Below, one piece after another: positions 1-19,386 of a stretch of 24,076 nucleotides of DNA. Location: positions 1 through 24,076 of IMG/VR virus record IMGVR_UViG_3300016659_000131. One strand, given 5' to 3'. The DNA is from a virus. Its lineage: Duplodnaviria > Caudoviricetes. The position numbers and the translations under genes were made by a program. Under the pieces are notes generated by a model. That model ran no database searches. It was not told where the DNA came from and was given only the letters and a program-made list of their open reading frames with translations. How positions within the stretch are numbered: the stretch's first letter is position 1; every line of letters begins with the position of its first letter.

Positions 1-676
1 GTCTTGGACTGTTTTTTTCTGTCACTAAATCCAAAGTTTCAATGTTGGTCCCATCTAGATTGAATTTCTGCAACATTAAAAATTGAACATCATAATGTGC
101 GACTTCACTACCGCCATCACACCCGCAGGAATGAGCGTATTGCCCTTTCATGTATTCATAATCTGTCGGTCCAATTGGAAACACATTCGGCAACCAATCA
201 GGACGAAATGTGACTAAGCCTGTGTCTTGACCTGTAAGGTAACTATAAAAAATAACATCTGCATCATATGACTTAGGAGCGTCTAATTTTTGATCATTAT
301 GATACCATGTAATGATCCTACATTTTCTTTTAAGTTGTTTTCCCTGTTCTACGCTCATGATGCCTTCTGGCCATAAATGGCCACAAGTTGCAACATATGC
401 AAGATTTTTAGAAGCATCATAATGAACTATTGTTCCTGATCCACTTGCATTTCCAACTGCAATTTTAACAGATGCTGACAAAAATCTCCTGTACTCAAGT
501 CCTCGTTTTGGTACTGGTGCAGGATTTGTGTTGCCGAATTTATCTCTTTCAAGAACCGGCATATTATCAAGCGGATGACGCTCAAAATTCCCATATGGAA
601 TTTGTGCTTCTTGACACAAAGATAATGGATTACATAAAATAAGAAGGACAAAGGTTGCAAAAATTTTATTGATCAT
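1..676 (-). CDS. Secreted trypsin-like (S1/Trypsin_2) serine protease, 3' end beyond window
   Basis: Manual translation from ATG at 676 (SD-like GCGGAG upstream): MINKIFATFVLLILCNPLSLC signal-like start, GSGTIV, VATCGHLW (catalytic His), QDTGLV (catalytic Asp), and ...TEKNSPR at the window edge just before the expected GxSGG serine motif. Frame is open for 225 codons. Confidence 0.8.
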   Translation of the reverse strand, partial: MINKIFATFVLLILCNPLSLCQEAQIPYGNFERHPLDNMPVLERDKFGNTNPAPVPKRGLEYRRFLSASVKIAVGNASGSGTIVHYDASKNLAYVATCGHLWPEGIMSVEQGKQLKRKCRIITWYHNDQKLDAPKSYDADVIFYSYLTGQDTGLVTFRPDWLPNVFPIGPTDYEYMKGQYAHSCGCDGGSEVAHYDVQFLMLQKFNLDGTNIETLDLVTEKNSPR

Positions 677-702
677 TAAAACTCCGCTTGTTTGGATTAT
701 CT

Positions 703-708
703 TATATA
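703..708. promoter_or_regulatory. TATATA motif (putative late promoter core)
   Basis: In the divergent gap between 676(-) and 719(+). Confidence 0.5.
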
Positions 709-718
709 CGGAAGTAAT

Positions 719-1186
719 ATGGCAACACTAACAATTTCACATCATATTTATTTAACAAACGAACAAAGATATAAAATTCATGAAGGCGAACCTTTGTCAT
801 TGGATGGAGTTGCAATACCAGTTTGGTTTTATAAAGGCAACACTTCTGAACCGGCACAAGAAATTTTTTGTCACTATCTTCTAAAAAATGATAAAACCGG
901 AACAAGTATTACATTCAACGCCAAAGAAGGCAAATTCATTGTGAATATGCCTCATGTTGAAATTATTTCAAACGATTCAGAAGTAGACCAAAATTTCAAG
1001 AAAGTCGTTCAAAGTAAAGTTGGTACTTCAGATAATTTACTGGAAATCAAGGATGGAGGCACTGGTTTTTGTGAATTTAAATTCTATCAAAAATTTGAAA
1101 TTGATAAAAAATTACATCATTTAATTCATTTTGTTGAAATCAAACCAATCGACATTTTGACTGATACTTTAGGGTCCGTTTCTTAG
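719..1186 (+). CDS. Hypothetical protein
   Basis: ORF 692-1186; the ATG at 719, just after the TATATA motif, is the likelier start. No recognisable motif. Confidence 0.7.
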   Translation: MATLTISHHIYLTNEQRYKIHEGEPLSLDGVAIPVWFYKGNTSEPAQEIFCHYLLKNDKTGTSITFNAKEGKFIVNMPHVEIISNDSEVDQNFKKVVQSKVGTSDNLLEIKDGGTGFCEFKFYQKFEIDKKLHHLIHFVEIKPIDILTDTLGSVS

Positions 1187-1675
1187 CTGCAAGGACATAC
1201 GCAGAGCAACTGAATCTCCATTTGCAAAAGTGACAGGAGAACTTAGTTCGGCAGAGCTTATAAGATATCCAGAATTATCTGATTTATTTGTCAAAAAAAG
1301 ATTTCGCACCGGACCATAAGTTCCCGTTGCCGAGAATGTTACAATTGATCCAACTGCTCTGTAATAGCTACCAACCAACTGAATAGTGAATCCGCCATTG
1401 GAACTTACAGTTTGCCTCGAATATCCATTTCCTGACGGTTCTAGGCTCGAAATAGTTGCCATATTATCTGCGGTAGCAAGCGAAGTTCTTGCGTCTAATC
1501 CAAAGTAATAATCTGTAGGCACTACAGTACCATCGTTGTTAAAACAACAGGTGAGAAGGAATTGTTCTCCTTCTGTGTGCAGCAAATTTAATATGTCATG
1601 ATCTTCCCAAATAACTTTTCCATCACGGATGTGTTGAATTTCCAAGATTTTTAAAATTCCATGCCAGTCTTTCAT
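1169..1675 (-). CDS. Putative small virion structural protein (tail/fiber-associated beta-rich family)
   Basis: Pattern NLLHTEGEQFLL...YYFGL...EPSGNGYSRQTV...TFSATGTYGPV...TFANGDS resembles small phage tail-associated proteins. Confidence 0.55.
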   Translation of the reverse strand: MKDWHGILKILEIQHIRDGKVIWEDHDILNLLHTEGEQFLLTCCFNNDGTVVPTDYYFGLDARTSLATADNMATISSLEPSGNGYSRQTVSSNGGFTIQLVGSYYRAVGSIVTFSATGTYGPVRNLFLTNKSDNSGYLISSAELSSPVTFANGDSVALRMSLQLRNGP

Positions 1676-2199
1676 TTTTTTCCTAACTTGTAAACTGATT
1701 GTTCTTTTAAACTTAAAGATAATACTAATTCGTCAATCTTGAATTCCTGACCTTCAAAATATGTATCGTCTAAAAATTTATCTCCATATCCTTTTTTTAC
1801 ATAGGCTATTGTAATATGAGGTATGTATAAAGGAAATTTGTTGGTATTTTTAATTGATTGACTCAAATTTTTGTTCAAAATATTTATTGAGTCATTTACA
1901 ACTTCAATATGAACAACATCATATTTGCTATTGTTTTTAAATAATTTTATTTTACCCATTTTACAAATTATAGTTTCTTCTTCGCCAATAATTTTTTTAA
2001 ATTTTTCATGACTGGTATCTTCAATATTTCCAAGTATTGTTAAATGTATATTTTTCTCCCTTCCAAAAGAAGGATCAATTGGATCATGAAAAAAATTTTC
2101 ACAATCAATATGATCATATCCCCACGATATTACTGAATCTACTATTGTTTCTGGCGGATATGCTATCAAATAATAGGATTCAAATCTATCCCATGACAT
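1672..2199 (-). CDS. 2H phosphoesterase (T4 gp57B/Acb1-like or 2'-5' RNA ligase family)
   Basis: Two HxT motifs: GREKNIHLTILG and YIPHITIAY. Likely start at MSWDRF (2199). Confidence 0.75.
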   Translation of the reverse strand: MSWDRFESYYLIAYPPETIVDSVISWGYDHIDCENFFHDPIDPSFGREKNIHLTILGNIEDTSHEKFKKIIGEEETIICKMGKIKLFKNNSKYDVVHIEVVNDSINILNKNLSQSIKNTNKFPLYIPHITIAYVKKGYGDKFLDDTYFEGQEFKIDELVLSLSLKEQSVYKLGKK

Positions 2200-2524
2200 A
2201 ATCCAAACCAGTCTGATCGTCCTGATCATTTATCTTAGGTGCATTTTTTCTTTCTTTTAATTGTTGCAATCTATCTTTTTCTTTCTTTATTTCATTCTCT
2301 ACCACATTTAATACAGAACCCAGATCAACAACTGGCATGGGATTACTTGCTGTTTTTCTTGCAATTTTATTTTCTTGACGAACTGTTCTTTTGTTTTCAA
2401 CACTTTCAACGATACTTAACGCCTTACGGATGTATGCCTTGACTTCTTGTAAAGAAAAATCATCTGGTGTGTTATGCAAAGCTTGATTCAATAAGCTTTT
2501 TACAATACCCGTGTTATTTTTCAT
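2186..2524 (-). CDS. Hypothetical helical/coiled-coil protein
   Basis: 112-aa ORF that overlaps both neighbours in a co-directional run. Confidence 0.7.
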   Translation of the reverse strand: MKNNTGIVKSLLNQALHNTPDDFSLQEVKAYIRKALSIVESVENKRTVRQENKIARKTASNPMPVVDLGSVLNVVENEIKKEKDRLQQLKERKNAPKINDQDDQTGLDYVMG

Positions 2525-3455
2525 TGCGATGTCTCCTAATCAAATTTATCCAACGAATTTGAGCATCTTCAGTTAATCTGTAACTTTCAATCGTCTCAAA
2601 CAAAGATGGATTTTTAATCTTGACTTCCCAAACATCAAGATTGCCCTTCGGCGGTTCTTTAAATATGACAACATCCTTATTTAAATAAGTTTTCATACCT
2701 AAAGCCAATTCTTTTTGCTTATTCTCATAAATTGCTTTTTTAGTAGAATCATCTCCTAAAAATCCGCTTACAAATTTGTTTATTTTCTTTTTTTGATTGT
2801 AAAATTCCATTAAATTATCTTGAATTTTTTGAGCTTTTGATGGAAGTTCTGTTGTGATATATTCAACATGAAAGTCATTGAAATTAAATTTCAAAACAAT
2901 CGGTATGATGTAATCAAATTTTGCGATCACAGATTCTGCTTTGAGTCTCTTGGGCAAACAAACTTCTAGTTGAACTGGCAAATGTTCAAGTTTATTTTGT
3001 ACTAATCCTTTGAAAATAAAGCCTTTAAGTCTTTCAATATTGGCATAACACTCATCAACAAGAGATTCCACGCAATCATCAACATCATTTGCCGTAAACA
3101 TTTGACCCAATGATTTTGCTTCAAAATTAAAGACACATGATTCCAAATAAACATAGAAATTTGAATCAATCGTTTCTTTATACTTTGCCAAACAATTTTT
3201 CATAGAATCTAAATTGTTTGATTTCATGGCTATCTGAATATTTTCAATAAACGGATAATTATCAAGACTAAGTTTTTGTTCTATTTTTTCATGGTTAATC
3301 AAAAAATCTTTTGCTTCGTCATAAAAATTCGTTTTTCTTAAAACTAAAGCGGAAAGTTCGCTGGCAATATGGTTTTTATAGTTCTCCATTGAAACAGTAA
3401 TTTCACGACTGTTCTCTTTTGCCATAACATATTCTTTATACTTATTGAATGTCAT
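2514..3455 (-). CDS. Hypothetical protein downstream of terminase
   Basis: ATG at 3455 immediately after the TerL stop, with SD-like GGTGGTGA; N-terminus MTFNKYKEYVMAKE. Confidence 0.75.
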   Translation of the reverse strand: MTFNKYKEYVMAKENSREITVSMENYKNHIASELSALVLRKTNFYDEAKDFLINHEKIEQKLSLDNYPFIENIQIAMKSNNLDSMKNCLAKYKETIDSNFYVYLESCVFNFEAKSLGQMFTANDVDDCVESLVDECYANIERLKGFIFKGLVQNKLEHLPVQLEVCLPKRLKAESVIAKFDYIIPIVLKFNFNDFHVEYITTELPSKAQKIQDNLMEFYNQKKKINKFVSGFLGDDSTKKAIYENKQKELALGMKTYLNKDVVIFKEPPKGNLDVWEVKIKNPSLFETIESYRLTEDAQIRWINLIRRHRNEK

Positions 3456-3456
3456 T

Positions 3457-5346
3457 TCACCACCCAAACTCTCGAAGAATTTTTTCTCCCCTTCTTTCAA
3501 ATCTTTGAAGCAACGACGAATCATATTCATCTCTGTCAGAAGCTAAAATATCATATTCATTTTCCAAAAGAATATCTTCTGGCCTTCCTTCCATAAGTTC
3601 TCTTTTTATGTCATCATAAACTTGTGATTTAACAGCTTGAAGGTTTTCTTTTGCAGCACCTGTGCCGAGAGGAACTTCTCTAATTAGACTATCACGAACA
3701 TATAAACCTATGCACATGGCCATGATGGCATCATCGTGTTTTCCTTTTTGTGCTTGTGCCTTCCTAGTGACCTTATTGTATTCAAAGGTATTTAACTCAT
3801 TGACAAATCTTGCACTATTTACCCTGACAGTATGATTGATCAAACGATTTTGCAAAGTTTCTAAGAACTGAGTTCTATTTGTTTGATTGACTCTTACTCC
3901 CGGTTTTGCATTTGTAGTTTTTGTATTTTCGTAATAAAGATTGTCATAGAAATGTGTATGTTGCAAAGCACTTAAAACCGCTCCGCCCGGTCCCATGTTT
4001 TCAACAACAACTAAGGCATTATTGTACATGATCGCAACTTCTTTGATAAGTTGTGCAAATTCGTGAGGATATATGATGTTTGAATAAAATTCACAAACTT
4101 GCTCTAGTGTAGCAGTATTGATTACATGAAAAACACTATTGTCATTATTTTCTCCTTGACCTTCGGCACAGTCAGCAGAAATAATATATTCTTGACCTTG
4201 AATTGGTTCTTTCCAAACCCACATCGCACCTTTGTTATTGTCTGTTTCTAACTGTGCAATACGACCGATGGTGTTGGCCCATTTGGGAAACAATTTACGA
4301 CTGGGATAATTGTTTCTTGTCTGTTCAAATAATGTGGTGAGCACATTCGTTGGAAAATATGTCTCGCCAGAACCTTGAAATTCACGCAAAACTTCTTGTC
4401 GAAAGCCTTTTTCTCCCAACTGAGCTTTTTGTTCTGCCACCCACTTTTCATCGTTGTAATCAGGATGTTCCCAATAGTCCAAATCAATTACATGAAACTT
4501 ATTCAATCCTTCCTTGGCATCATGATATGTTTGCTCATACCAGTTGCCAAGACCATTAACTGTTGATATAAGAGTGCATGAACCACCTGTTGAGAGAATG
4601 GGCCACATAGCTTTCCAATGTTTGTCCATATCGTCGATGAACGCACATTCGTCAACAATCAGAAATGTGACTGATTTACCACGGGCAGCTTCTGGCGAAT
4701 AAAATTTCAATGCCGAACCAGTATCTGTAAATTGTTTCAAGTGGTCATTCCACTTTCCATCTTTGCGAGGCTTGATCCAATCAGGAAAATTTTCGCAAGC
4801 ACGGTCTGCCATCATGCCAATATCAGTTGCTTCTCGGTCGGTTTTGCTAATCAACATGATTTGTTGATCAAGCTGAAACATACATCGCCACAATCCCCAC
4901 AATAATGTGACTGTAGTCAAACCACCCTGACGGAATTTTGAAATAATGTTGAAGCGATGATTTTCGTAATCGTGAATTGTTTTTCTTTGATATTTAAATA
5001 AAACGAATGGAATCAAACCTCTCATCGGGTGGAGGATTCTTACATATTTGTGGCAAAAGTACGCAAAACTTTGTGAACATTTAATCAGTTCTTTTTTTCT
5101 TCTATTGGGATCATAATTTTCTATGCTGCTTAAAGGTTCGTCTGGATCAATTTCCATTTCATATTTGTCGAAATCGTAATATGTCAGATCATATTGAGGT
5201 TTGCCGGTAAGAGGGTCAATTGCCCCACCGGCTTTGTAGTAATCTTTAAGTGTTTTGAATTTGCCTCGCCAAATTGAATCGGCAACACTTTTAAAATAAA
5301 TTGGTTTTTCATCCATATAATTTTTTGACCCGATAAACTCTTTCAT
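3457..5346 (-). CDS. gp17: Terminase large subunit (T4 gp17-like)
   Basis: Adenine-binding LFKYQ, Walker A-like KFRQGGLTT, ARGKS, Walker B LIVDECAF, coupling motif ISTVNG, nuclease motifs SADCAEG..DNS and HDDAIMA. Confidence 0.95.
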   Translation of the reverse strand: MKEFIGSKNYMDEKPIYFKSVADSIWRGKFKTLKDYYKAGGAIDPLTGKPQYDLTYYDFDKYEMEIDPDEPLSSIENYDPNRRKKELIKCSQSFAYFCHKYVRILHPMRGLIPFVLFKYQRKTIHDYENHRFNIISKFRQGGLTTVTLLWGLWRCMFQLDQQIMLISKTDREATDIGMMADRACENFPDWIKPRKDGKWNDHLKQFTDTGSALKFYSPEAARGKSVTFLIVDECAFIDDMDKHWKAMWPILSTGGSCTLISTVNGLGNWYEQTYHDAKEGLNKFHVIDLDYWEHPDYNDEKWVAEQKAQLGEKGFRQEVLREFQGSGETYFPTNVLTTLFEQTRNNYPSRKLFPKWANTIGRIAQLETDNNKGAMWVWKEPIQGQEYIISADCAEGQGENNDNSVFHVINTATLEQVCEFYSNIIYPHEFAQLIKEVAIMYNNALVVVENMGPGGAVLSALQHTHFYDNLYYENTKTTNAKPGVRVNQTNRTQFLETLQNRLINHTVRVNSARFVNELNTFEYNKVTRKAQAQKGKHDDAIMAMCIGLYVRDSLIREVPLGTGAAKENLQAVKSQVYDDIKRELMEGRPEDILLENEYDILASDRDEYDSSLLQRFERRGEKILREFGW

Positions 5347-5370
5347 TTTTAGAATAGTTTGTGTCTAATT

Positions 5371-5376
5371 TATATA
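5371..5376. promoter_or_regulatory. TATATA motif (putative late promoter core)
   Basis: In the divergent gap between terminase and M28. Confidence 0.5.
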
Positions 5377-5394
5377 TGGTGCAGAGGAACAACC

Positions 5395-6519
5395 ATGAAA
5401 AAACTTCAGATAATAGTTCTGACATTAGCAATATTGATGATAGTTGTCCTTTTAAGCAAAAATGAATTCCATCAAAATATTGAAGAAAAAGAAATAATCA
5501 AACCAAAAACCAAGTCTGTACCAAAACAAGAATTGCCAAAAGTATCAGATGCTCTTGAAAAAATAGACGAACAAGAAATCAAAAGAAACCTTGAATATCT
5601 TGCATCTAATGAACTTGAAGGCAGAATGTCAGGGAAAAAAGGAAATAAATTAGCCGCAGATTTTATCAAGAAAAAGTTTGAAAGCTTTGGATTGCCGACA
5701 GAATATCATAAGTTTCCAATTAGGAGAACAAACCCCGGACCTAAAAACGAATTAGGCGACGATTTCACCCAAAATGTATATGCTTGGATAGACGGAAATG
5801 ATCCTCAATTAAAAGATGAGATTGTCGTAGTTGGAGCGCATCTAGATCACATCGGTTATGGCCCATCTATGTCAAGGGCAAATAAAGTTCTGAAAATACA
5901 CCCCGGTGCCGATGATAATGCTTCTGGCTCTGTTGCTTTGCTTGAAATAGCTGAGGCGTTTTCCTTTTTGAAAGGACAAAATAAAAGAACTGTAGTTTTT
6001 ATGGCTTTTTCAGCAGAAGAAATGGGGTTAAAAGGCAGTCTGCATTATGTCAATAATCCTCTTTTTCCACGCAGTAATCCTTCTTTATCAAAACATATTT
6101 TTATGTTGAATATGGATATGATTGGTCATTTATCAAAAAATAAAACCGCTTCTTTTGATGATGCAATTAGTTCGGCAGACATAGGAGATTTAATCAAAAA
6201 ATTAAATGATAAATATTCTTTTGCTAAGAAAATAACCTTACGAGGGGCAAGCGGCAGCGATCATGCACCATTCTATAACAAAAAAATTCCAGTCGCTTTC
6301 CTTCATACTGGATTGCATGAATACTATCACACACCTAGGGATACAGCAGAAAAAATAAATTACGAAGGACTTGAAAAGGTTGCCAGATATGGCTTTGAAT
6401 TAGTATGGGAAGTTTGCAACAGTCAAAATAAACCAGAGTTCGATGTTGGTTCTTTCAGCGAAATGGACTACAGTCACGATCACGGACACAAAGATTTACC
6501 TTTTGAGGAAAAACCATGA
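5395..6519 (+). CDS. M28 family Zn aminopeptidase with N-terminal membrane anchor/signal
   Basis: GAHLDH, GADDNASG, AEEMGLKGS, NMDMIG, SDHAPF, YHTPRD motifs. Start MKKLQIIVLTLAILMIVVLLS after SD GAGG. Confidence 0.92.
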   Translation: MKKLQIIVLTLAILMIVVLLSKNEFHQNIEEKEIIKPKTKSVPKQELPKVSDALEKIDEQEIKRNLEYLASNELEGRMSGKKGNKLAADFIKKKFESFGLPTEYHKFPIRRTNPGPKNELGDDFTQNVYAWIDGNDPQLKDEIVVVGAHLDHIGYGPSMSRANKVLKIHPGADDNASGSVALLEIAEAFSFLKGQNKRTVVFMAFSAEEMGLKGSLHYVNNPLFPRSNPSLSKHIFMLNMDMIGHLSKNKTASFDDAISSADIGDLIKKLNDKYSFAKKITLRGASGSDHAPFYNKKIPVAFLHTGLHEYYHTPRDTAEKINYEGLEKVARYGFELVWEVCNSQNKPEFDVGSFSEMDYSHDHGHKDLPFEEKP

Positions 6520-6944
6520 CACTTGATGAAATGATTGGTCTTATGAATCAAGACCTTATGAACGAATGGATGCACATGAAGTTTTATTTATACCACGCAT
6601 CTGCCGTAGTTGGACTACATTGTCATGAATATAAAGAAATATTGATAAATGAAGCTAAAAGCGAAATGAATCATGTTACTGAGTTTTCTGACGCAATCGT
6701 CGGATTAGGCGGTGTCGCCACTAGTCAATCAAATGAATTTCCAAAATTTATCCAACCACAAGACATCATGAAACACGCAGTTCATATTGAAAATGAAGTT
6801 GTAGAAAATTATGCAAACAGGATCGAACAAGCCAAAGAATTAGGTGGATCAACTGGGGCTTGGTTAGAAATTTTTTATGAAAATCAACTTGAACATAGCC
6901 GTATTGATTTGGATCATTTTAAACAAATTGTCAAAGGAACTTGA
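6516..6944 (+). CDS. Ferritin/bacterioferritin-like four-helix bundle protein
   Basis: Di-iron-type residues: NEWMH..Y, SEMNH, IENEVVENY, IDLDH; also the IVGLGG turn. ATGA overlap with the M28 gene. Confidence 0.8.
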   Translation: MTLDEMIGLMNQDLMNEWMHMKFYLYHASAVVGLHCHEYKEILINEAKSEMNHVTEFSDAIVGLGGVATSQSNEFPKFIQPQDIMKHAVHIENEVVENYANRIEQAKELGGSTGAWLEIFYENQLEHSRIDLDHFKQIVKGT

Positions 6945-6990
6945 CCTAAATTTCTAAAAACATACAATTATTTGTGTTTTTGAAGAAAGG

Positions 6991-7302
6991 ATGAGTTTTA
7001 TGAAGTACAATCTTGTTTCGAACCTGCCTGTTGCTCGTTTTTGGTACAAAGGCAATCATAGCCATCCAGTACGAAGAACGATTCTCGTAACTAATCAGGA
7101 CGAGGAAACTATTACTGGCTATGAACTGCGTGAAGGTGGAAAAGTACGACCAGCAAAATACGCTCCAATCAAGACATTTACACGATCAAAGATTGCAAAA
7201 ACCAGCAATCTTCGTTCTGATAATCCGCTAAGGAAGAAAAGCGAAGCCAAGAGCACTTTAATTCGCAAACCTCTTTTGGACTTGATCGAAAGCGGAATTT
7301 GA
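6991..7302 (+). CDS. Hypothetical protein, possible stand-alone WYL-like domain
   Basis: RFWYKG...RRTILV...ITGYELRE...IKTFTRSKI follows the WYL pattern F.Y...R.V...L.a...R...RtF...rI. Confidence 0.5.
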   Translation: MSFMKYNLVSNLPVARFWYKGNHSHPVRRTILVTNQDEETITGYELREGGKVRPAKYAPIKTFTRSKIAKTSNLRSDNPLRKKSEAKSTLIRKPLLDLIESGI

Positions 7303-7323
7303 TAAAAACCCGTAAAACTTCAA

Positions 7324-7361
7324 AAAGACACTACTAGATAAAGTAGTGTCTTTATTTTTTT
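7324..7361 (+). terminator. Intrinsic terminator-like hairpin
   Basis: 12-bp perfect stem AAAGACACTACT / AGTAGTGTCTTT with loop AGATAA, followed by a T-run. Confidence 0.75.
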
Positions 7362-7373
7362 GGGAAATAAAAA

Positions 7374-8378
7374 ATGTCATATTATCTCAATCCATTCAAC
7401 GAATACCAAGGATATTATACAGTTGGTGATTCATCCGGCTTTAAATTAACCTTTAAGGTTCCCGGCAATAAAAATTTCTCTGAATTTTTCATTTGTTGGA
7501 ATCCAGAGCCTTACAACCTTTCAATTTATAGCACATTAACATTCAACTTTGCATTTGATCCATCATTCAAAAATTGGTCATCATTTAGTGTAAACATCGC
7601 TGGTCCTACCCCGGCAGTAACAACAGCAGCGGAAATTGTTAGCATTCTCAATGCGGATTCAAATTTCTCCGCATGGTACACAGCTTCTGTTTACAGCGGC
7701 AATAAAGTTGGAATCAGACAGAAAAAGCCAGTTGTTGGATTCCATACATTTATTTCAAATACAAGCGCAGAAAAAAAACTCAGATTCAATAAACAAATTG
7801 GCGTGGCAGATATCCCGTCTTATTTTGAAAAAGACACCATAGCAAACAGATTTACCTCTGATACAGCCAACAATACGCTCATTAGACTAGGCAAGGTAAT
7901 CTCCGCAAATAGTGCTGCTAATCCGACTGTATGCACCTGTACAGCGCACGGATTGTCAAATGGCGACACAATCTACATTGCCAACAGCAATTGCACACCA
8001 ACAATTGATGGTGCCAGAACTGTTACCGTGACAGGATTGGACACATTCACAATACCAGTCAATGTAACAACAGCAGGCACCTTCGCTGAATTTTATACAC
8101 AAGAAGAATATGATTTATTGACCGATCTTGGTGTTGACTACACCAAGTTGCTCACAGATTACGAGCATCTTAAAGGCAGATGTCCTGCTTTCCAATTTAT
8201 AAAAAATACATTGGATGGAAGCAGTAGAATTATTCAGCAAATTACATATGCTGCCGGATCAACAGCGGGAATGTTGGGCAAGAAAACAATTTATACTTAT
8301 ACAGGTATTGCAACCACTCCAACTACAGTAGCAGAATTTCCTTATGTTTTAACTGCCGCCGATATTCTTAGTCCTTGA
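7374..8378 (+). CDS. Putative virion structural protein with E1-FCCH-like beta domain
   Basis: T/S/A/G-rich composition; ANPTVCTCTAHGLSNGDTIYI...DTFTIPVN matches the FCCH-like module common in phage tail/neck proteins. Confidence 0.6.
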   Translation: MSYYLNPFNEYQGYYTVGDSSGFKLTFKVPGNKNFSEFFICWNPEPYNLSIYSTLTFNFAFDPSFKNWSSFSVNIAGPTPAVTTAAEIVSILNADSNFSAWYTASVYSGNKVGIRQKKPVVGFHTFISNTSAEKKLRFNKQIGVADIPSYFEKDTIANRFTSDTANNTLIRLGKVISANSAANPTVCTCTAHGLSNGDTIYIANSNCTPTIDGARTVTVTGLDTFTIPVNVTTAGTFAEFYTQEEYDLLTDLGVDYTKLLTDYEHLKGRCPAFQFIKNTLDGSSRIIQQITYAAGSTAGMLGKKTIYTYTGIATTPTTVAEFPYVLTAADILSP

Positions 8379-8555
8379 AATTTTTTCCTTGAAGTCAAAA
8401 TAATTCCATGTGGTTGCCGAATCTTGGTAGCCACTTATGCTTATTACCCTTGGTTTCTCAACAGTAATTTTTTTTTCCAATAAAGAGGGCAAGTTGTGCA
8501 AAACACAAATTGCCCATTCATCATTCATTAAATTTTTCCAGCTTTTGCTGGACAT
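8349..8555 (-). CDS. Small hypothetical protein
   Basis: 68 aa with SD GAGG; starts 9 bp after the upstream stop codon. Confidence 0.6.
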   Translation of the reverse strand: MSSKSWKNLMNDEWAICVLHNLPSLLEKKITVEKPRVISISGYQDSATTWNYFDFKEKISRTKNIGGS

Positions 8556-8564
8556 AAAACCTCA

Positions 8565-9152
8565 TTACATAAAGAAAATTATGTAAGCCAATCCAACAAC
8601 TTGTGCTGCAATTACGCAAATTAAGATTTTGTCCATCATGGACGAGCCATCATTTTGAGGAACAGACATTTTTTCAAACTCCTCGGCTAAACCCAAACTT
8701 CTCACAACTTTCTTGGGTGACTCAACCTTCGGGTTGGCATCCTTTGCCTTACTTTCTTGCTTTTCCTTGGGCTTATTGTTGGTTTTAAATTCTGCCAACA
8801 TCTCCACAAGTTCTCTTTTTGTAAGCGATACAGAATCATTTTCGGAATCATTGCTTTTAACCAAAGCAATGTGTTCAACCAGTTGCATAGGCACTCTTGG
8901 TTCCAATGATTCTAATTTTTGTTCTACGACATTACCAGTAGCAGGATCAATTACTTCTAATTTTCTTTCATAAATATATGGCTTAACCTTTTCTACGATC
9001 CTCTGTTGCAAACGCAGAGGACGGGCATCTTCGACATGTAACTCAATGACTCTTTCACCTTGACCGTTTACATCCTTGGTTTCAGTAACTCTGCGTTCGG
9101 CTCTTCTGCCATCGTCCAAAGTCCACTTTTCCACCTTTAGCTGGTCATCCAT
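8565..9152 (-). CDS. Hypothetical tail-anchored membrane protein
   Basis: Soluble N-terminus; C-terminal hydrophobic helix ILICVIAAQVVGLAYIIFFM; SD AAGGGG. Confidence 0.75.
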   Translation of the reverse strand: MDDQLKVEKWTLDDGRRAERRVTETKDVNGQGERVIELHVEDARPLRLQQRIVEKVKPYIYERKLEVIDPATGNVVEQKLESLEPRVPMQLVEHIALVKSNDSENDSVSLTKRELVEMLAEFKTNNKPKEKQESKAKDANPKVESPKKVVRSLGLAEEFEKMSVPQNDGSSMMDKILICVIAAQVVGLAYIIFFM

Positions 9153-9188
9153 AAATCCCCTTTCATTTATATTATTTATTCCAAAATG

Positions 9189-9548
9189 CTATTTTTTCAA
9201 TAAAACTTTAACTTCAAAACTCAACAATTTGACTTTTTTGGCCATATCTTCCAATTGCTCGTTTGCAAGAACAAATGCTTCTTCTTTGGTTGCCGCAAAA
9301 ACATCCGAAAGATTCTTATATTCAATGCCAAGACCACGATTATACCTAAGCATAACACCCCAGACCTGCTTTCTGGGTTTATGTAAGATTTCGATGGCGT
9401 AATCAAAAGCTTCGCCATATGTATTAAATTCTTTGATTTCTAAGGAATAGCAGCTTTCTGGGACACTTTCTTTCTTGACAACAAACTTTCCGTTTGATGG
9501 GTAAATCATAAAGCCGTTCAACAAAAGCATTTGGAGAGAATCGCTCAT
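9189..9548 (-). CDS. Hypothetical protein
   Basis: 119 aa with SD AAGGAG. Confidence 0.75.
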   Translation of the reverse strand: MSDSLQMLLLNGFMIYPSNGKFVVKKESVPESCYSLEIKEFNTYGEAFDYAIEILHKPRKQVWGVMLRYNRGLGIEYKNLSDVFAATKEEAFVLANEQLEDMAKKVKLLSFEVKVLLKK

Positions 9549-9558
9549 AATTACTCCT

Positions 9559-10080
9559 TCAAGTTAAACCCCATTTGTTTTTAAAATCATCCAATATTTC
9601 CTTTCTTTTCTTGTTTGCTTCCATGGCAATTCTTTGCTTTTCTATTGGTTTGTTTTTTCTTTCTATCTTTTTTGCCAAATCATAAAGCGATTCGATTTTT
9701 TTCTCCCATAAAGTATCAGGGACATATGCTTCTAATTCCCCATTCATTTCCTTGTAAACTTTTTTACCTTCATATTCACAAACAATTTCACGATTGTAAA
9801 AATGCATGATTATCGACATATTTACCCCTCTGGGCAATCCGTCAAAAATCAATCCCACCTCATAACTATTTTCTTCTTGCTCAAAAACAGGAATTGAATT
9901 TTCTTCCGGCAATTCAAATGGATCGGAAAGAAAACTTTGTTCAAAAGACTTGCTTCCTTGATGAATAATTGGTTGGCCAAGACGCTTGGCAATAACGGCA
10001 AATTTACCTTCCATGCCCATATATCCATGTCGCATGGCTTCTATAGTTCGAGCTTCTTTTATTTGCTCTTGACGACCCAT
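9559..10080 (-). CDS. Hypothetical protein
   Basis: 173 aa with SD GAGG. Confidence 0.75.
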   Translation of the reverse strand: MGRQEQIKEARTIEAMRHGYMGMEGKFAVIAKRLGQPIIHQGSKSFEQSFLSDPFELPEENSIPVFEQEENSYEVGLIFDGLPRGVNMSIIMHFYNREIVCEYEGKKVYKEMNGELEAYVPDTLWEKKIESLYDLAKKIERKNKPIEKQRIAMEANKKRKEILDDFKNKWGLT

Positions 10081-10098
10081 TGTTGAACCTCTAACTAC

Positions 10099-10110
10099 TA
10101 TATACTAATG
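10099..10110. promoter_or_regulatory. TATATACTAATG motif (putative late promoter)
   Basis: In a divergent gap; identical 12-mer at 14531. Confidence 0.6.
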
Positions 10111-10138
10111 TCTTTCTTAACTTATAAAAAGGAGAACC

Positions 10139-11854
10139 ATGTTAAAAGGATTGATAAACTGGTTTCAAAAAACAAGGGAATACATTTTCCCAACAATCGA
10201 TACTGTAGAAGCACAAGCGCAACCAGTAGCTCCTAAACCTGTTGTTAAAAAAAATAAAACATATTACATCGACCCAACATCACCAAAATTTTTGTTGACT
10301 GCCAATATGCCAGCAACTACTGCTTTGCCGATGCGTGGTGTGGGTGAAGGCGGTGGCGGTTTTGCGCTTGGCACTCCGCAACAACAAGCTGATGGCTTGA
10401 AACAAATGGTCAACGATGCACTTGTTTTTATGAAATCAAAATGCCCTTCCGCAATAACTAAGTGGAGAGGGACTGCAACTCTTGCTCTTTATCCCCGTGC
10501 CGGACAAGATTTAAACGCATACTACGACAGATCATCTTTGAAATTCTTCTATTTCCCAGACAGCATTCTGAAAAAAAAAATCTACGCTGCCGATTCACGA
10601 ACCGTAGTCACACATGAGTTCGGACACGCTTTCTTGGACATTTTAAGACCCGATTTTTGGAGCGCACAAGCATCAGAAGTATGGGCATATCATGAAGCTT
10701 TTGCTGACATAACAGCATTTTTAAATAATTTGCAATACGATCCATTGATCCAAAGAGCTTTAACAGAAACGAGCGGAAATTTAAGCAATTCAAATTCCCT
10801 TACAAAATTGGCAAGAGAAATGGGCATAGGATTGCACAATTTAGCCCAAGGCCAATATGGAGAACTTTCTGATTGCCTCAGAGATTTAAGTATTGAATTT
10901 AAATATGTTGTGCCTGAAACTTTACCAAACGATGGTTTAGATAATGTTCTTATCAACGAACCTCACAGTTTCAGTCGTGTTTTTAGCAGTATGTTTTATA
11001 AATTGTTCGTTGCCGTAACAAATGACAATGTCACAAAAGGCATGGCCCCCTTGGCGGCTATCAAATCAGCCCGTGATGTTCTTGCCAATTATCTCATTCA
11101 AGCTACTATCAAAGCACCTTTGACAACAAGACTATTCAAGGCAATTTGTCAAGAAATGCTTGTTGCGGACCAAAAAAACGGCAACAGATATCAAAATATC
11201 ATGAATAATATTTTTGCCGATTCAAGAATTTTATCACCAACAGTAAAATTATTGTCAGATATTAAGCTTGACTCTGTTCTTAAAAATATTACTGGCGATT
11301 ATATGCTTGAAGACGATGGTGACATTAAGGTCATTCGAATTCCAGTCGTAAAAACCATGCGTATTGCACAAAAAATGGGTGTTGTTGCTCTCAACAATAA
11401 TCCCCTTTTAGATGTTGAAATTGAAGTAGCATCACAATCTGCTTATTATTTTGACAAAAATGGATCAATGATTGAAGCAAGTGAGGCAACTCAAAGTGAA
11501 ATTATCAATTCTGCATATGAATGCCTCAACATAATCAATAATAAAAATTTGGCATCCGGTAATGATAAGGCTTTGTTTGAAGTTATTGATGGAAGATTAA
11601 CTCGCAAACAAATCATTTGCACATGTAACAAACCTAATTATTGCATTCCCGGTGCTCCAGAATATCAAAAACCTTGGAAACCAAAAAACAACGCTGGATG
11701 CGTGGCTTGCAAAAGCAAATGTGATCCAAAACCTTGCGATTGCGCTCAACCCCAGCCACCTGTGCCGCCAAAAATTGGCTGTTACACAAAAATAAACAAA
11801 CAAGGTCCAACCACTTATAAATTTGGACAATCAATTTCTAGAAAAGTTTGCTAG
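10139..11854 (+). CDS. Gluzincin metalloprotease (M4 thermolysin/M36 fungalysin-like) with Cys-rich C-tail
   Basis: LNAYY, VVTHEFGH (HExxH), third ligand in AYHEAFAD, and EPH motif. SD AAGGAG. Ten Cys in the last ~78 aa. Confidence 0.85.
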   Translation: MLKGLINWFQKTREYIFPTIDTVEAQAQPVAPKPVVKKNKTYYIDPTSPKFLLTANMPATTALPMRGVGEGGGGFALGTPQQQADGLKQMVNDALVFMKSKCPSAITKWRGTATLALYPRAGQDLNAYYDRSSLKFFYFPDSILKKKIYAADSRTVVTHEFGHAFLDILRPDFWSAQASEVWAYHEAFADITAFLNNLQYDPLIQRALTETSGNLSNSNSLTKLAREMGIGLHNLAQGQYGELSDCLRDLSIEFKYVVPETLPNDGLDNVLINEPHSFSRVFSSMFYKLFVAVTNDNVTKGMAPLAAIKSARDVLANYLIQATIKAPLTTRLFKAICQEMLVADQKNGNRYQNIMNNIFADSRILSPTVKLLSDIKLDSVLKNITGDYMLEDDGDIKVIRIPVVKTMRIAQKMGVVALNNNPLLDVEIEVASQSAYYFDKNGSMIEASEATQSEIINSAYECLNIINNKNLASGNDKALFEVIDGRLTRKQIICTCNKPNYCIPGAPEYQKPWKPKNNAGCVACKSKCDPKPCDCAQPQPPVPPKIGCYTKINKQGPTTYKFGQSISRKVC

Positions 11855-12282
11855 TCAATATTGACAAATTTTGTTGTTAATTTGGTAGGAATGCCTTTAT
11901 CGTCATAATTTACAACATTCGTGTTCGCATCAATCTGGGCATATAACAATTCGGCATACGGCTTGTCACCCATGAGATTGATGCGAACGCTCACATCGCT
12001 GATGTGCGGTTTTGCTTCTCTAATGTAAATTTTAAATTTATCTTTGTCACCCGCAACAATTTTATATCCACCTTTTACAGCTTCGTCAGAAACTATTTTA
12101 TGATCCAAATCACGCAAGGCATTTTTTGTCGCACGATACATAGTTTTAAGGTTCTCATGATAATACTTGTGTGCCTCACCTTGCTTCCACATAATAATAC
12201 CAGTCATAATCGGACCCTGAACAAAGGGCACAACTGCACAACCAGAAAATAAAAAACATAAAAAAATAACTATTTTTTTCAT
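11851..12282 (-). CDS. Lipoprotein, DUF3568-like
   Basis: MKKIVIFLCFLFSGC lipobox; SD AGGAGG; YRATKNALRDL...VSVRI pattern resembles DUF3568. Confidence 0.65.
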   Translation of the reverse strand: MKKIVIFLCFLFSGCAVVPFVQGPIMTGIIMWKQGEAHKYYHENLKTMYRATKNALRDLDHKIVSDEAVKGGYKIVAGDKDKFKIYIREAKPHISDVSVRINLMGDKPYAELLYAQIDANTNVVNYDDKGIPTKLTTKFVNID

Positions 12283-12297
12283 GAATGCCTCCTATGA

Positions 12298-12305
12298 TAT
12301 TTATA
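12298..12305 (-). promoter_or_regulatory. T4 late-promoter consensus TATAAATA
   Basis: Exact TATAAATA on the - strand just upstream of the lipoprotein SD. Confidence 0.5.
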
Positions 12306-12362
12306 TTTAATTGCGATTAGTCTAGAAAAATATCGCAAACTGGTTTTCTAAAGGAGATTTTC

Positions 12363-12668
12363 GTGACTAGAGTTGACAATTTATTCCAGCTTACAAGGTT
12401 TTTCCCTATGGCTGATTTACTTAAAGCTTCAAAGTTTGATCTTGAACTCCTCAATCATTGGTATGCAACTAGATATGACGAGGAAGAAGACGACGATGAC
12501 GAGGAAGAAGACGACGATGAGTGGGATGACGATGAGGACGAAGACGACGATGATTGGGATGACGATGAGGACGAAGACGATGAGTGGGATGACGATGACG
12601 ACGAAGACGACGAAGATGACGAAGATGACGAAGATGACGAAGATGACGATGAACTAGAAGATTATTGA
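12363..12668 (+). CDS. Small, extremely acidic (D/E-rich) protein
   Basis: GTG start with SD AAGGAG (alternative ATG at 12408). About 60-residue D/E tract containing three Trp; followed by a terminator. Confidence 0.7.
   Translation: MTRVDNLFQLTRFFPMADLLKASKFDLELLNHWYATRYDEEEDDDDEEEDDDEWDDDEDEDDDDWDDDEDEDDEWDDDDDEDDEDDEDDEDDEDDDELEDY
12476..12660 (+). repeat. Coding low-complexity tandem repeat (GAY/GAR codons; 30-33-nt TGGGATGACGATGA units and 9-nt GAAGATGAC units)
   Basis: Directly visible in the sequence. Confidence 0.85.
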
Positions 12669-12677
12669 ATTTAACCA

Positions 12678-12711
12678 AAAGCCCGGTAATATTCCGGGCT
12701 TTGATTTTTTT
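12678..12711 (+). terminator. Rho-independent terminator
   Basis: AAAGCCCGG-TAATATT-CCGGGCTTT followed by a T-run, 10 bp after the stop codon. Confidence 0.8.
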
Positions 12712-12793
12712 ATCCTATATAAGAACTAAATATATTAGGCATATGTAGATTTAATGGCAGTCTACATTTCACAATTACATGACAAGGAGGTTC

Positions 12794-13525
12794 ATGAAAA
12801 AATTTCTTAGCATCTTTGCCACATTATTGTGCTGCTTATCAGCGTTAGCACAACCACTTTTGCCTCAAATCGTTCCACCAAACGAACGGCAATATCCTAA
12901 TGTTTACCTCGCTGTAAATACTAACCCAATTGTTTCTTTTGAAGGATCGGTAGATGACGATCTTTTAGATGTCATGGTGCCTGTGCCCATGAAAGACCGT
13001 GTATTCAATAAAACCGGAATTCAATGTGTATGGGCTTCAACAGAATTGCTCGGAAGATATGCCGAAGAACCAAAACTAATCAATTTAACCAGCGATCCTG
13101 ACTGTAAAAGCTATGCCACACCTTCAAGTTTTCATCGAAAAATGAAACAACTTGGTGTCAAATATGAAACTACAACTGATCCTAAAGACCGAAGTCTCAT
13201 TATCAAAGGCGTGGTTAAAGAAAAACGAGGAGTGCTTTTCTGCGTTCCCGGTCATGCAATGGTGCTGGTTCATTACGACGAAAAAAAAGGTATCGTAAAA
13301 TATATCAACAACAGCGATAGAACCCTTGCCATTCGGACTTGGACAATGGCTGAATTTAACAAAAGATTTGATGGTTGGGTGTCAATCGTTTATGCCGATC
13401 ATGATATAATTCCACAAAAATATGCACCAAAAATTCCCACTCTCCCAATTATTGACAGAAATAGAAGCCAAGGAAATTACGATAAAGATTACATTCTTCA
13501 ACCACAAAAACTATTGTCGTTTTAA
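12794..13525 (+). CDS. Secreted papain-fold (C39-like) cysteine peptidase
   Basis: SD AGGAGG; signal peptide MKKFLSIFATLLCCLSALA|Q; QCVWAS (Cys), GHAMVLVHYD (His), YINNSD (Asn). Confidence 0.75.
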   Translation: MKKFLSIFATLLCCLSALAQPLLPQIVPPNERQYPNVYLAVNTNPIVSFEGSVDDDLLDVMVPVPMKDRVFNKTGIQCVWASTELLGRYAEEPKLINLTSDPDCKSYATPSSFHRKMKQLGVKYETTTDPKDRSLIIKGVVKEKRGVLFCVPGHAMVLVHYDEKKGIVKYINNSDRTLAIRTWTMAEFNKRFDGWVSIVYADHDIIPQKYAPKIPTLPIIDRNRSQGNYDKDYILQPQKLLSF

Positions 13526-13559
13526 TATATAAAATATTCAGCTAATTCCAAAGGAAAAC

Positions 13560-14117
13560 ATGAACAAGAATTATATCAAGTATTTAAGCGGAATTATTAA
13601 CGAAGAACAATTCCATTTTGCAGAATCTGTTGACCTTGGTAATTTCGATGAAAAAGAAATTATGGGCAAATTGCTTAAATATGCAAAACAATTAGTGAAT
13701 ATATTCAATTGGCATGAAGACGAAATGGAACAAATTGTTTCAAGCTCACTCGCTAGTAACGAATTTGATAGAGAAGCTGGGCTTGGATATTCAGGTCATT
13801 TACAAAATTATCTTATGGACCTTGCTGCTGCTCTAAATGGAGGATTAGCAGCACTTCATATGGGGGCTGGTAAAACAGCCGGTATGTATGATGGTGAAAA
13901 AATGTTGCCAATTATGCTTGATAGACTTGGCTTACTCGGACTTGACAATCCCAAAACCAGCAAGGTTACTCAAGCAATTAAGAAATGTGCTGAAATAGCA
14001 GCCAAAGACACTCACAAGGACTTAAAAAATAATTCTCCTTATGTTGTGGCTTTTCGTGATTCAATTGAAAAACTTAATCATGCAATTGTTAATCGTCAAA
14101 CAATGATGCGTGCGTGA
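13560..14117 (+). CDS. Hypothetical protein, candidate internal head protein
   Basis: SD AAGGA; N-terminal KYLSGIINE motif. Confidence 0.7.
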   Translation: MNKNYIKYLSGIINEEQFHFAESVDLGNFDEKEIMGKLLKYAKQLVNIFNWHEDEMEQIVSSSLASNEFDREAGLGYSGHLQNYLMDLAAALNGGLAALHMGAGKTAGMYDGEKMLPIMLDRLGLLGLDNPKTSKVTQAIKKCAEIAAKDTHKDLKNNSPYVVAFRDSIEKLNHAIVNRQTMMRA

Positions 14118-14296
14118 TTCAAATTCATCAGCTTCGGCAAATTATCTTGATTTTTTAAACTGATTTTCTACAATTCAAACTGAAATCTGTTTATAGATGA
14201 CAGCCGATGCAATTGATCAAACATTTTCGTCGCAAACTTCCAATCCAAACAACAAATGCTCATTTCATTAAAATAAAGAAGCATTCAAATCAAAAA

Positions 14297-14524
14297 CTAC
14301 TTTTTAATCTCTCTTGATTTTTTCTTGCAATTACAATCTTTTTTCATATATTTAATTTTATCCATCTTCGTCGGTGGTTTGTCACTATCCCCATACTGCG
14401 GCATCGCCGTTGTTCTTACAGGACTACCGAATTGATCTGCCTGATCTGAAGCCATCGATTCAGCACCCGGTTCGCCACCGTACCATTCTCGTTTTTTAAG
14501 GTATTCCGCAAAAGATGTAATCAT
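14297..14524 (-). CDS. Small hypothetical protein, candidate internal head protein
   Basis: N-terminus MITSFAEYLKKRE resembles a capsid-targeting sequence; basic Cys-containing tail. Confidence 0.65.
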   Translation of the reverse strand: MITSFAEYLKKREWYGGEPGAESMASDQADQFGSPVRTTAMPQYGDSDKPPTKMDKIKYMKKDCNCKKKSREIKK

Positions 14525-14530
14525 TTTAAA

Positions 14531-14542
14531 TATATACTAATG
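14531..14542. promoter_or_regulatory. TATATACTAATG motif (putative late promoter)
   Basis: In a divergent gap; identical 12-mer at 10099. Confidence 0.6.
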
Positions 14543-14568
14543 CACACAAATTTGTTGCAAGGAGTGCC

Positions 14569-15660
14569 ATGAAAAAAGAGTTTTCAAAAATAATCATCTT
14601 GTGCATTTTATACACATCTTTAATATGTGCATATACTTACAAAACCAAGCAACTAGAACCCAAAAAACCAGAAAATAAAATAGAACAAATTGAGGACATC
14701 CTCAAAAATACCGACGCAGCAAAGAAAACATTTCCCGATCCAGTTTCAATATCAGTAAAAATACCGCCCTTTTTAAATTATGCCCAAACCATAAATCAAC
14801 TCAAACAATGGCAATCTGAAGCTCCTGAATTAGTTGAAGTTGACACCTATGGACAAACAAAATCACATAAGGATTTATATTACATCCGTGTTCATAACCG
14901 CTTCGATAAAACAAAGAAACCCGTAGTTTTGATAACCGCTGCAATTCACGGAAATGAACCTTGGAGCAGCAGCATCACTATGGCATACATAGGAAATATT
15001 ATTGATCAATATGCAAAAAGCAAAGAAATAACAGACATGATCAATTCTAGAGATTTATATTTTATTCCAATCGTTTCGCCAGATAGCTATCCCACATCAA
15101 GGACTGTAGGCAACATTGATCCAAACAGAGACTTTCCAACACCAAAAAACAACGAACATCAAAGCATACCAGAGATCATGGCTCTAAGAGAATTTTATTT
15201 CAAAATAAACCCATCTGCCGTTATTTCTGGACATACTTATGGTCGCATTTTTATGACTCCTTACGGAGACACTCATCAAAAATCGCCTCATGAAGCTGAT
15301 TACAATCGAATCGTTGGCAAAATGGCTGAAATGGCAAATTACAAAAAAATACATTGCGTTGAACTGTACGGAAAGCCAATTGATGGATCAGAGGTAGATT
15401 GGTTTTATAGAAACGGCTCCATATCAATTTGCGCTGAATATGGAACCCATCAAAATAAACCCACCAATGATGAAATCAAAAGCGAATTCATGCGTGTAAA
15501 AGATGCAATCAACTTTTTTGTCAACGAAGCGCCGAACATTTCTGTTAAGGTAAACGACGAAGGGGTAGATTTTTCAAAAAATACAGGTATCTCTCGTAAG
15601 TACGCTCGACTTCCAAACGGGGATTTAGTCCCAGTAGGTCCGTACCAAAACCCCGATTAA
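14569..15660 (+). CDS. M14 zinc carboxypeptidase with N-terminal signal/anchor
   Basis: AAIHGNEPW (HxxE), PNRDF, ISGHTYG, catalytic AEYG; hydrophobic N-terminus; SD AAGGAG. Confidence 0.9.
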   Translation: MKKEFSKIIILCILYTSLICAYTYKTKQLEPKKPENKIEQIEDILKNTDAAKKTFPDPVSISVKIPPFLNYAQTINQLKQWQSEAPELVEVDTYGQTKSHKDLYYIRVHNRFDKTKKPVVLITAAIHGNEPWSSSITMAYIGNIIDQYAKSKEITDMINSRDLYFIPIVSPDSYPTSRTVGNIDPNRDFPTPKNNEHQSIPEIMALREFYFKINPSAVISGHTYGRIFMTPYGDTHQKSPHEADYNRIVGKMAEMANYKKIHCVELYGKPIDGSEVDWFYRNGSISICAEYGTHQNKPTNDEIKSEFMRVKDAINFFVNEAPNISVKVNDEGVDFSKNTGISRKYARLPNGDLVPVGPYQNPD

Positions 15661-16156
15661 CAGATTGCATTTCTTTAGGATCAAATTCAATCTCTGAAGG
15701 TAAATCAAGATATTCCTTTATCAAATCCATGCCTTCACCGGCACATAATTGTTCATATGTCAAAAATACAGCCCCCGGTGTTCTTTTTGCCATTTCACAA
15801 AGACGACGAATTCGGAATTTATAATGAAGAACAGCAAACGAAGGTTTTTTTCTATCTTTTGATATCAAATAATTTATGGGAATTTCAGGCTTTCTTAAAA
15901 CATAAATAAATTTACAATACTTGTAGGCATCTTTTGATGAAATTTGAAAATTAAATAAAATTTCATCCATATAAATTGCAGATCGGTTTTGGCATTTGTG
16001 ATTTTGCTGCGTTAATGTCAAAAGTTGAAATCCAGAAGAATAATTACCAAGAGTGTGGCCTTTATAGCCTTGTATTCTTGGATGTCTATTCATCGATTGA
16101 TATAAAATTTCTGACCCTGAATACTGATGACTGCAAATAAACACTATTTTTTTCAT
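15545..16156 (-). CDS. Sulfotransferase-family protein (divergent)
   Basis: VFICSHQYSGSEILYQSMNRHP (PAPS 5'-loop-like), KFIYVLRKP (3'-phosphate motif), LTYEQL. Start at MKKIVF (16156). Confidence 0.65.
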   Translation of the reverse strand: MKKIVFICSHQYSGSEILYQSMNRHPRIQGYKGHTLGNYSSGFQLLTLTQQNHKCQNRSAIYMDEILFNFQISSKDAYKYCKFIYVLRKPEIPINYLISKDRKKPSFAVLHYKFRIRRLCEMAKRTPGAVFLTYEQLCAGEGMDLIKEYLDLPSEIEFDPKEMQSVNRGFGTDLLGLNPRLEVERTYERYLYFLKNLPLRRLP

Positions 16157-19377: not shown

Positions 19378-19386
19378 TATATACTA
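19378..19386. promoter_or_regulatory. TATATACTA motif upstream of the head operon
   Basis: In the divergent gap between 19344(-) and 19509(+). Confidence 0.6.

Follow-up and report, generated by a model that had tools for sequence, protein, structure and literature searches.

In the holin-endolysin lysis of tailed phages, a late-expressed hydrolase that carries no signal is kept in the cytoplasm, and exported enzymes may be added as an option. In this article, I will discuss a 24,076-nucleotide stretch of a Caudoviricetes virus (IMG/VR record IMGVR_UViG_3300016659_000131, positions 1 to 24,076; "the window" below means this whole stretch) in which five unrelated peptidase genes, of S1, M28, M36/M4-like, C39-like and M14 type, lie among the packaging and head genes. 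An original prediction, made from the letters alone, took the five for a single late-expressed extracytoplasmic system; comparison with relatives instead reveals two tiers, a core M36-fold zinc protease and an accessory exported set, and not one obligate system. The locus would share with holin-endolysin systems its late timing, the cytoplasmic storage of a hydrolase without a signal, and optional exported enzymes, and it differs in that its genes form scattered promoter units rather than a cassette, that no peptidoglycan hydrolase family was found except a patchy M23 and that there was no holin in the subset of proteins scanned. The folds are known, the arrangement and the proposed role are not: no description of the gene set was found in the literature within reach, which leaves aside subscription papers and bioRxiv supplements, and term searches of PMC7162821 and 10.1101/2025.02.27.640493 returned neither a host nor a function for it.

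The closest described proteins each resemble one part of this arrangement. With M36 fungalysin and M4 thermolysin the core enzyme shares the fold and a zinc site built from HExxH and a downstream Glu; unlike the secreted members of these families, it has neither a signal peptide nor an inhibitory propeptide, and it is further set apart by an identity of only 12-14%, an amphipathic N-terminal helix, an extra C-terminal domain, a Cys-rich tail and its standing as a phage core gene. Protealysin, which PMC9505478 describes as an intracellular metalloprotease encoded with its inhibitor and cleaving FtsZ and RecA, likewise lacks a signal peptide and keeps a fixed gene neighbour, whereas the phage partner is divergent and without a family. 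Mtz/Tim of Listeria, a secreted metzincin of phage origin beside a lipoprotein, sensitises cells to lysis and raises virion release according to PMC8235301; it belongs, however, to another protease family and is a chromosomal remnant assisting ordinary lysins in a Gram-positive host. Huge phages also encode exported proteins acting on the envelope (sortase B, PspA, outer membrane proteins), with peptidases a frequent class (10.64898/2026.10.24.761521), but the main text of that work is without M28, carboxypeptidase or Planctomycetes, and its supplements may list these families.

The core tier is best seen by following the M36-fold gene through relatives of the window. Scanning with the terminase yielded 78 loci, on contigs as long as 572 kb, and 76 of these loci fall into 51 lineages of the terminase large subunit (terL; two loci at 28% identity were excluded), and genes were scored only in visible slots. 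Five genomes are of complete size (G004, G005, G218, the 98% complete G219, and LR756511.1), G001 is a fragment, and G004 resembles the window at 69% in terminase and 88% in capsid. The M36-fold gene is present in all 35 lineages with a visible slot and in all five complete-size genomes, and the family runs to 918 representatives at E <= 1e-30. The protein (571 aa) has no Pfam match; its predicted model (pLDDT 83) resembles M36 fungalysin and M4 thermolysin in a Foldseek search (E 1.7e-5), and structural alignment with VIA-align gives Z 26.7 to M36 (287 residues, rmsd 2.8) and Z 22.5 to thermolysin, the zinc site H159-E160-H163, E186 and D190 being invariant in 37/37 aligned sequences. HExGH occurs in 120/120 homologs and a hydrophobic N-terminal (signal) segment in 0/120, and the N-terminal helix has a hydrophobic moment of 0.65 against a background median of 0.37, N-terminal statistics in which the homologs are related and hence not independent. 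Since the catalytic domain begins at about residue 36, there is no propeptide, and most family members end in the Cys-rich tail, which is absent in one branch.

A 173-aa partner gene adjoins the M36-fold gene in 58/58 clusters (56 by a strict divergent test) drawn from 80 further loci, many of them from records already in the terminase scan; TATATA lies near the start in 51 of these clusters, and terL is within 8 kb in 50. The partner protein matched no known family in Pfam and other family searches, and ESM Atlas gave no usable match; its linkage, together with the protealysin precedent (PMC9505478), makes it a putative inhibitor of the protease. A full-length cellular homolog of the protease (L334:1417-3006), also without a signal peptide, is found in a planctomycete genome, where it passes the PF02128 cut-off and converges on an unannotated 325-aa gene; a likeness by eye between the product of that gene and the C-terminal domain of the phage enzyme was rejected. 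The M36-fold profile matched 9/201 Planctomycetota genomes, which is not evidence for a host because this was the only phylum searched.

All five peptidase open reading frames (ORFs) are where the original prediction placed them, with conserved catalytic residues, and the S1 gene, cut by the window edge as it had noted, was recovered whole (310 aa, including Ser229) from L001, a contig of the same phage that overlaps the window and has a 100% identical terminase. S1 has a His-Asp-Ser triad with GxSGG (H100, D151 and S229 invariant in 21/21 aligned), its homologs keep the His and Ser motifs in 120/120 and match PF13365 in many cases, and there is a weak HtrA match (E 0.005). M28 matches PF04389 at E 4e-42 (144.6 bits against a cut-off of 21.3), has the two-zinc ligands and aligns to the Streptomyces-type aminopeptidase 1cp7. 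The C39-like model (pLDDT 77) matches the C39 fold by Foldseek (E 6e-5), Atlas agrees, and C78, H154, N173 and D175 are invariant in 13/13 aligned; the protein has no Pfam C39 match and no ABC-transporter fusion. M14 passes the PF00246 cut-off (E 1e-27, 97.8 bits) with its zinc ligands in place and has no NCBIfam match. It had also been suggested that papain-fold and M14 enzymes might cut peptidoglycan stems, an idea now weakened for M14 because the solved structures nearest to it are carboxypeptidases of A4/T type, and each of the 50 solved matches at E <= 0.001 belongs to the CPA/CPB/CPT/CPD types, with a murein enzyme named in none. No meaningful match came from searching the PDB by sequence with the M36-fold, S1 and C39-like proteins.

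Four of the five had been expected to carry N-terminal signal or anchor segments, and a hydropathy heuristic agrees, with cleavable-looking segments on S1 and C39-like, anchor-like ones on M28 and M14, and none on the M36-fold protein. SAR endolysins have a Gly/Ala-rich N-terminal anchor; Gly plus Ala makes up 6-18% of the four hydrophobic segments, and a SAR-endolysin reading was rejected. S1 and C39-like also end in a common motif of about 25 residues, and a tail profile built from C39-like proteins only retrieved 90/120 S1 homologs and, in G004, an exported protein unrelated to either; no such tag was detected on M28 or M14. This third tagged family (G004 519584-520573, minus strand; G218 near 410474) shows, to the eye alone, His-Gly and Cys motifs like those of caspases. 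Another TATATA-led exported protein, with HExxH, occurs at L096:353-1228, L215:12240-13178 and G001 79371-80321 and in 3/17 other records, and in the G001 copy Gln replaces the catalytic Glu.

The linkage of the peptidases to terL and the portal is conserved in relatives, as anticipated, and the distribution of the four signal-bearing enzymes is nevertheless patchy: S1 is present in 21/26 lineages, M28 in 18/45 plus one mixed, C39-like in 12/30 and M14 in 4/8, an empty slot being no proof of absence, given that some 95 kb separate M14 of G005 from the head genes. All five peptidases occur in G004, G005 and the fragment G001; G218 has all except C39-like, with two tagged S1 genes; LR756511.1 has the M36-fold gene with its partner and a weak C39 paralogue, and S1, M28 and M14 were not found; and G219 keeps only the M36-fold gene of the five, so that the four together are in two of the five complete-size genomes and none of them in two. 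The lipoprotein and tail-anchored membrane protein that had been noticed among the peptidases are a DUF3568 protein (Pfam) and a protein with a hydrophobic C-terminal end, and both are missing from G219 along with S1, M28, C39-like, M14 and exported LolA-like and thioredoxin-like proteins, all of which G004 and G005 and, except for C39-like, G218 have in common. This joint absence suggests that the exported genes tend to be present or missing as a group (four genomes, kinship not controlled). A single five-enzyme extracytoplasmic system is thus not supported: its sole core member has no signal, and the other four are patchy and absent from G219 and LR756511.1, which is the patchiness that had been named in advance as counting against it. 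Locus scans queried with the gene at 19509 and with M14 returned no loci, and a C39-like profile matched 0/121 Planctomycetota genomes, in a search that had no positive control.

The hexamer TATATA precedes all five peptidases (26, 18, 34, 72 and 32 nt before the starts of S1, M28, M36-fold, C39-like and M14), terL (24 nt) and the first gene of the head operon (125 nt), as the original prediction had it, and it is not found 5' of the portal. With 12 of the 30 window genes led by the motif, the chance that all five peptidases are among them is P = 0.006. Its count in the window is unremarkable (7 against 4.1 expected) and all seven are intergenic; among the 64 A/T hexamers it is the most intergenic in the window, G001 and G004, and in G004, a genome of 53% GC and 10% intergenic, 36/53 copies lie between genes. 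Gene starts cluster 4-7 nt past it, with an ATG peak at +5 in all four complete genomes, although the control hexamer TATTTA shows a +5 peak in G219 too. The motif leads terL, head-operon, sigma-factor and many small-protein genes; being genome-wide, it was rejected as a protease-specific signal. Genes with signals are over-represented behind it in G004 (6/37 against 37/650, p 0.02) and G001 (4/16 against 2/136, p 0.001). The T4 late promoter is an AT-rich element just 5' of the transcript start, used with gp55. TATATA resembles it in being one AT-rich element that lies a few bases ahead of the transcript start and leads morphogenesis genes, and a small, gp55-sized sigma-70-like protein is encoded in 4/4 complete genomes; it differs in being palindromic and often placed between divergent genes, and many starts seem leaderless. 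TATATA is therefore likely a palindromic late promoter, predicted from sequence, and its placement makes late expression of the peptidases, as first proposed, likely as well. Small TATATA-led proteins are encoded at 14297-14524 (minus), 18997-19344 (minus) and 13560-14117 (plus), with many more in G004 and G005, and their N-termini resemble the targeting sequences of T4 internal proteins.

No classical endolysin or holin had been visible in the window, and within the families and records searched this is borne out, M23 being the patchy exception. In six-frame searches, none of 13 records gave a match to lysozyme, amidase 2, SLT, amidase 3 or M15, NlpC/P60 was absent from all five records searched for it, and a further record set gave 0/5 for lysozyme and 0/6 for amidase 2, with positive controls throughout. 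Pfam, run on 487 of the 848 called ORFs of G004 (those of at least 120 aa and not crossing a stretch boundary), found no wall hydrolase except M23, and additional peptidases in the form of two trypsins, a subtilase, C39, papain and ClpP. No holin was recognised among the 64 scanned of 152 small membrane proteins, holins being often undetectable. G004, G005 and G218 have in common an exported beta-rich protein (LolA-like by eye, without a family match), an exported thioredoxin-like protein and a three-helix membrane protein, which is a holin candidate by size alone.

Where a clade has no recognisable endolysins, an endolysin substitute would be expected to look like this enzyme, a late hydrolase that has no signal and is kept universally. 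I therefore propose, tentatively and at a little short of an even chance, that the core zinc protease and the optional exported proteases digest host envelope proteins for progeny exit, in place of an endolysin. The gp55-sized sigma factor would read TATATA late in infection, and the M36-fold enzyme, with neither signal nor propeptide, would build up within the cell, as a classical endolysin does, with its amphipathic helix holding it to the inner membrane and the partner protein restraining it. Where present, the S1 and C39-like endopeptidases (with a cleaved signal and the common C-terminal tag) and the membrane-anchored M28 and M14 exopeptidases would work in the periplasm, the former cutting load-bearing envelope proteins and the latter trimming the fragments and perhaps returning amino acids, so broadening the attack, and loss of membrane integrity would then give the core enzyme access to the envelope. 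The bolder version, in which exit across a whole clade of Planctomycetota phages of 400-600 kb uses no peptidoglycan hydrolase at all, a membrane-docked, inhibitor-gated M36-fold protease being the endolysin equivalent and co-inherited, tag-addressed exported proteases dismantling a protein-based load-bearing layer of the planctomycete envelope, I regard as doubtful.

Several points weigh against this exit proposal, including some that concern the host. The M23 match is weak, is found in 2/13 records and is not in the complete G005; GH19 and GH108 searches were uninformative because their controls were silent; lysin coverage of G218 and G219 amounts to two families and one M23 query; and most ORFs have no family. 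In G005 the genes with signals are not significantly enriched behind TATATA (6/49 against 51/723, p 0.16). The exported enzymes are dispensable and so cannot be the essential exit step of the clade, the M36-fold gene sits among head genes, which suits a virion role equally well, and the substrates, the holin and the timing device are hypothetical, while the envelope activity of the enzymes is predicted from sequences and models. As for the host, the genes of G004 include those for EF-Tu, ribosomal L7/L12, RRF, SmpB, MscL and around a dozen tRNA synthetases (L108:9871-11052; L093:5745-6212). The EF-Tu of G004 falls within Planctomycetota (0.98 support with its sister) in a tree enriched with 25 top-scoring Planctomycetota sequences, a first tree of 80 loci from 1/64 parts of the collection being too weak alone, and L12 also scores best in this phylum (83 against 65 bits outside it); SmpB, however, ties, CTP synthase and M28 score best in Bacteroidota, and EF-Tu is present in only one of four complete genomes. 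On this mixed evidence the host is probably a member of the Planctomycetota. Planctomycetes were long thought to be protein-walled and yet have lysozyme-sensitive peptidoglycan, according to PMC4432640, so that a divergent, unrecognised hydrolase may exist; this history cuts both ways.

The main rival would make the M36-fold protease a virion enzyme, either a second head or tail maturation protease or a packaged opener of the envelope at entry, with the exported enzymes as unrelated accessories. The constant company of terL, portal and tail-like genes, the late promoter, the missing signal, the strict partner gene and the failure to find a tail lysozyme in the 13 records all suit it; a gp21-type head protease is, however, already encoded separately in the window, and the membrane-type amphipathic helix and the full-length planctomycete homolog better suit a cellular substrate, and I consider this role unlikely. 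Very unlikely is a core enzyme that, like protealysin, acts inside the cell and cuts host proteins of division, cytoskeleton or defence under control of an inhibitor: the absence of a signal and the fixed partner agree with it, but the promoter is of late and not early type, the partner resembles no known family and the fold is nearer to M36 than to M4.

Two further explanations start from the exported enzymes, and both are quite improbable. Destruction of receptors or reshaping of the surface, for superinfection exclusion or for protection of the infected cell in a long infection, would agree with predicted export or anchoring, with the patchy presence typical of accessory genes, with the co-presence of lipoprotein and membrane proteins and with the surface proteins of huge phages that PMC7162821 proposes to alter susceptibility. 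Under this explanation the cytoplasmic core enzyme and the missing lysin stay unaccounted for. Exclusion genes are usually expressed early, whereas these peptidases sit behind a late-type motif. A feeding module, in which digestion of captured or periplasmic protein yields the amino acids for building very large virions, draws on the digestive look of an endo-, amino- and carboxypeptidase mix, on nearest solved relatives that are general aminopeptidases and carboxypeptidases and on the many translation genes and further peptidases of G004, but it leaves the absolute conservation of a signal-less enzyme, its partner and the missing lysins unexplained, and no peptide transporter was noticed near the peptidases.

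The window otherwise reads as a T4-like phage, with terminase, intein-containing portal, head protease and major capsid genes, and coordinates are collected in the table. Its major capsid protein finds its best match among annotated phages in LR756511.1, a 595-kb uncultured record (77.5%). The window comes from a T4-like huge-phage clade whose complete relatives measure 390-595 kb; window DNA was detected in freshwater metagenomes, some runs of which may be its source. The clade is widespread and consists of giant freshwater phages, probably of planctomycete bacteria, and the supplement of PMC7162821 mentions huge phages predicted to infect Planctomycetes, with no link made there to the present clade. 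Among neighbouring genes, a 2H phosphoesterase (1672-2229, minus) has a below-cut-off match to anti-CBASS Acb1 and a G004 orthologue that passes both cut-offs, a ferritin-like gene (6516-6944, plus) adjoins terL in 57/78 loci, a low-complexity ORF of nearly all Asp/Glu (12363-12668, plus) lies directly 5' of the C39-like gene, and a gene 5' of the portal (15545-16258, minus), with a start that is sulfotransferase-like by eye and no family match, is kept in 23/78 loci. The intein match is weaker in the G004 portal. G004 also carries Volactin, of the actin family (PF25216, E 1e-72), at 304091-305095 (L099:4091-5095), and as it is 65-71% identical in the other three complete genomes, it is a core phage actin. 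Short major-capsid-like ORFs lie far from the capsid gene (about 55 residues matched at 48-79%), and a scaffold-like paralogue (202 residues matched) is at G004 132721-133587.

Table. Coordinates of features in the window and, where a genome or locus is named, in relatives.
Feature	Position	Strand	Basis or family
S1 trypsin-like serine protease, 5' part (310 aa whole); signal-like N-terminus, C-terminal tag; accessory	2..676	-	
TATATA, between divergent S1 and gene at 719	703..708		
terL	3457..5346	-	context
TATATA, between divergent terL and M28	5371..5376		
M28 aminopeptidase, predicted signal anchor; accessory	5395..6519	+	PF04389
Tail-anchored membrane protein, no family; ends in hydrophobic stretch; co-occurs with exported set, 3/4 complete genomes	8565..9152	-	
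Partner gene, 173 aa, core; no family; candidate inhibitor or regulator	9559..10080	-	
TATATA, common to divergent partner and M36-fold genes	10099..10104		
M36/M4-fold zinc endopeptidase, core; extra C-terminal domain, Cys-rich tail	10139..11854	+	
DUF3568 lipoprotein; co-occurs with exported set	11851..12282	-	
TATATA, 5' of C39-like gene	12716..12721		
C39-fold cysteine protease, stand-alone, 243 aa; signal-like N-terminus, C-terminal tag; accessory	12794..13525	+	
TATATA, between M14 and divergent 14297-14524 (start 6 nt away)	14531..14536		
M14 carboxypeptidase (CPA/CPT-like), predicted signal anchor; accessory	14569..15660	+	PF00246
Portal with intein PF14890	16230-18752	+	Pfam
TATATA, 5' of head operon (19509 onward)	19378..19383		
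Shared exported/membrane proteins of G004, G005, G218	L103:495-1355; L217:3882-4766; L109:10155-10703; L104:17112-17447		
Capsid-like short ORFs	G004 517817-518062, 58150-58437, 524328-524810, 453477-453812; G005 296072-296662 and others		

The question addressed here is how phages burst Planctomycetota, and what share protein and peptidoglycan each have in the strength of the envelope. A core late protease in a large clade without recognisable lysins offers cloneable enzymes whose substrates would test both, and, if the clade-wide version of the exit proposal is true, those substrates would identify the load-bearing protein layer of the planctomycete envelope. Should the exit role prove wrong, the M36-fold protease and its partner still mark this clade as a hallmark gene pair, and the late regulon of the clade can be defined by way of the palindromic motif.

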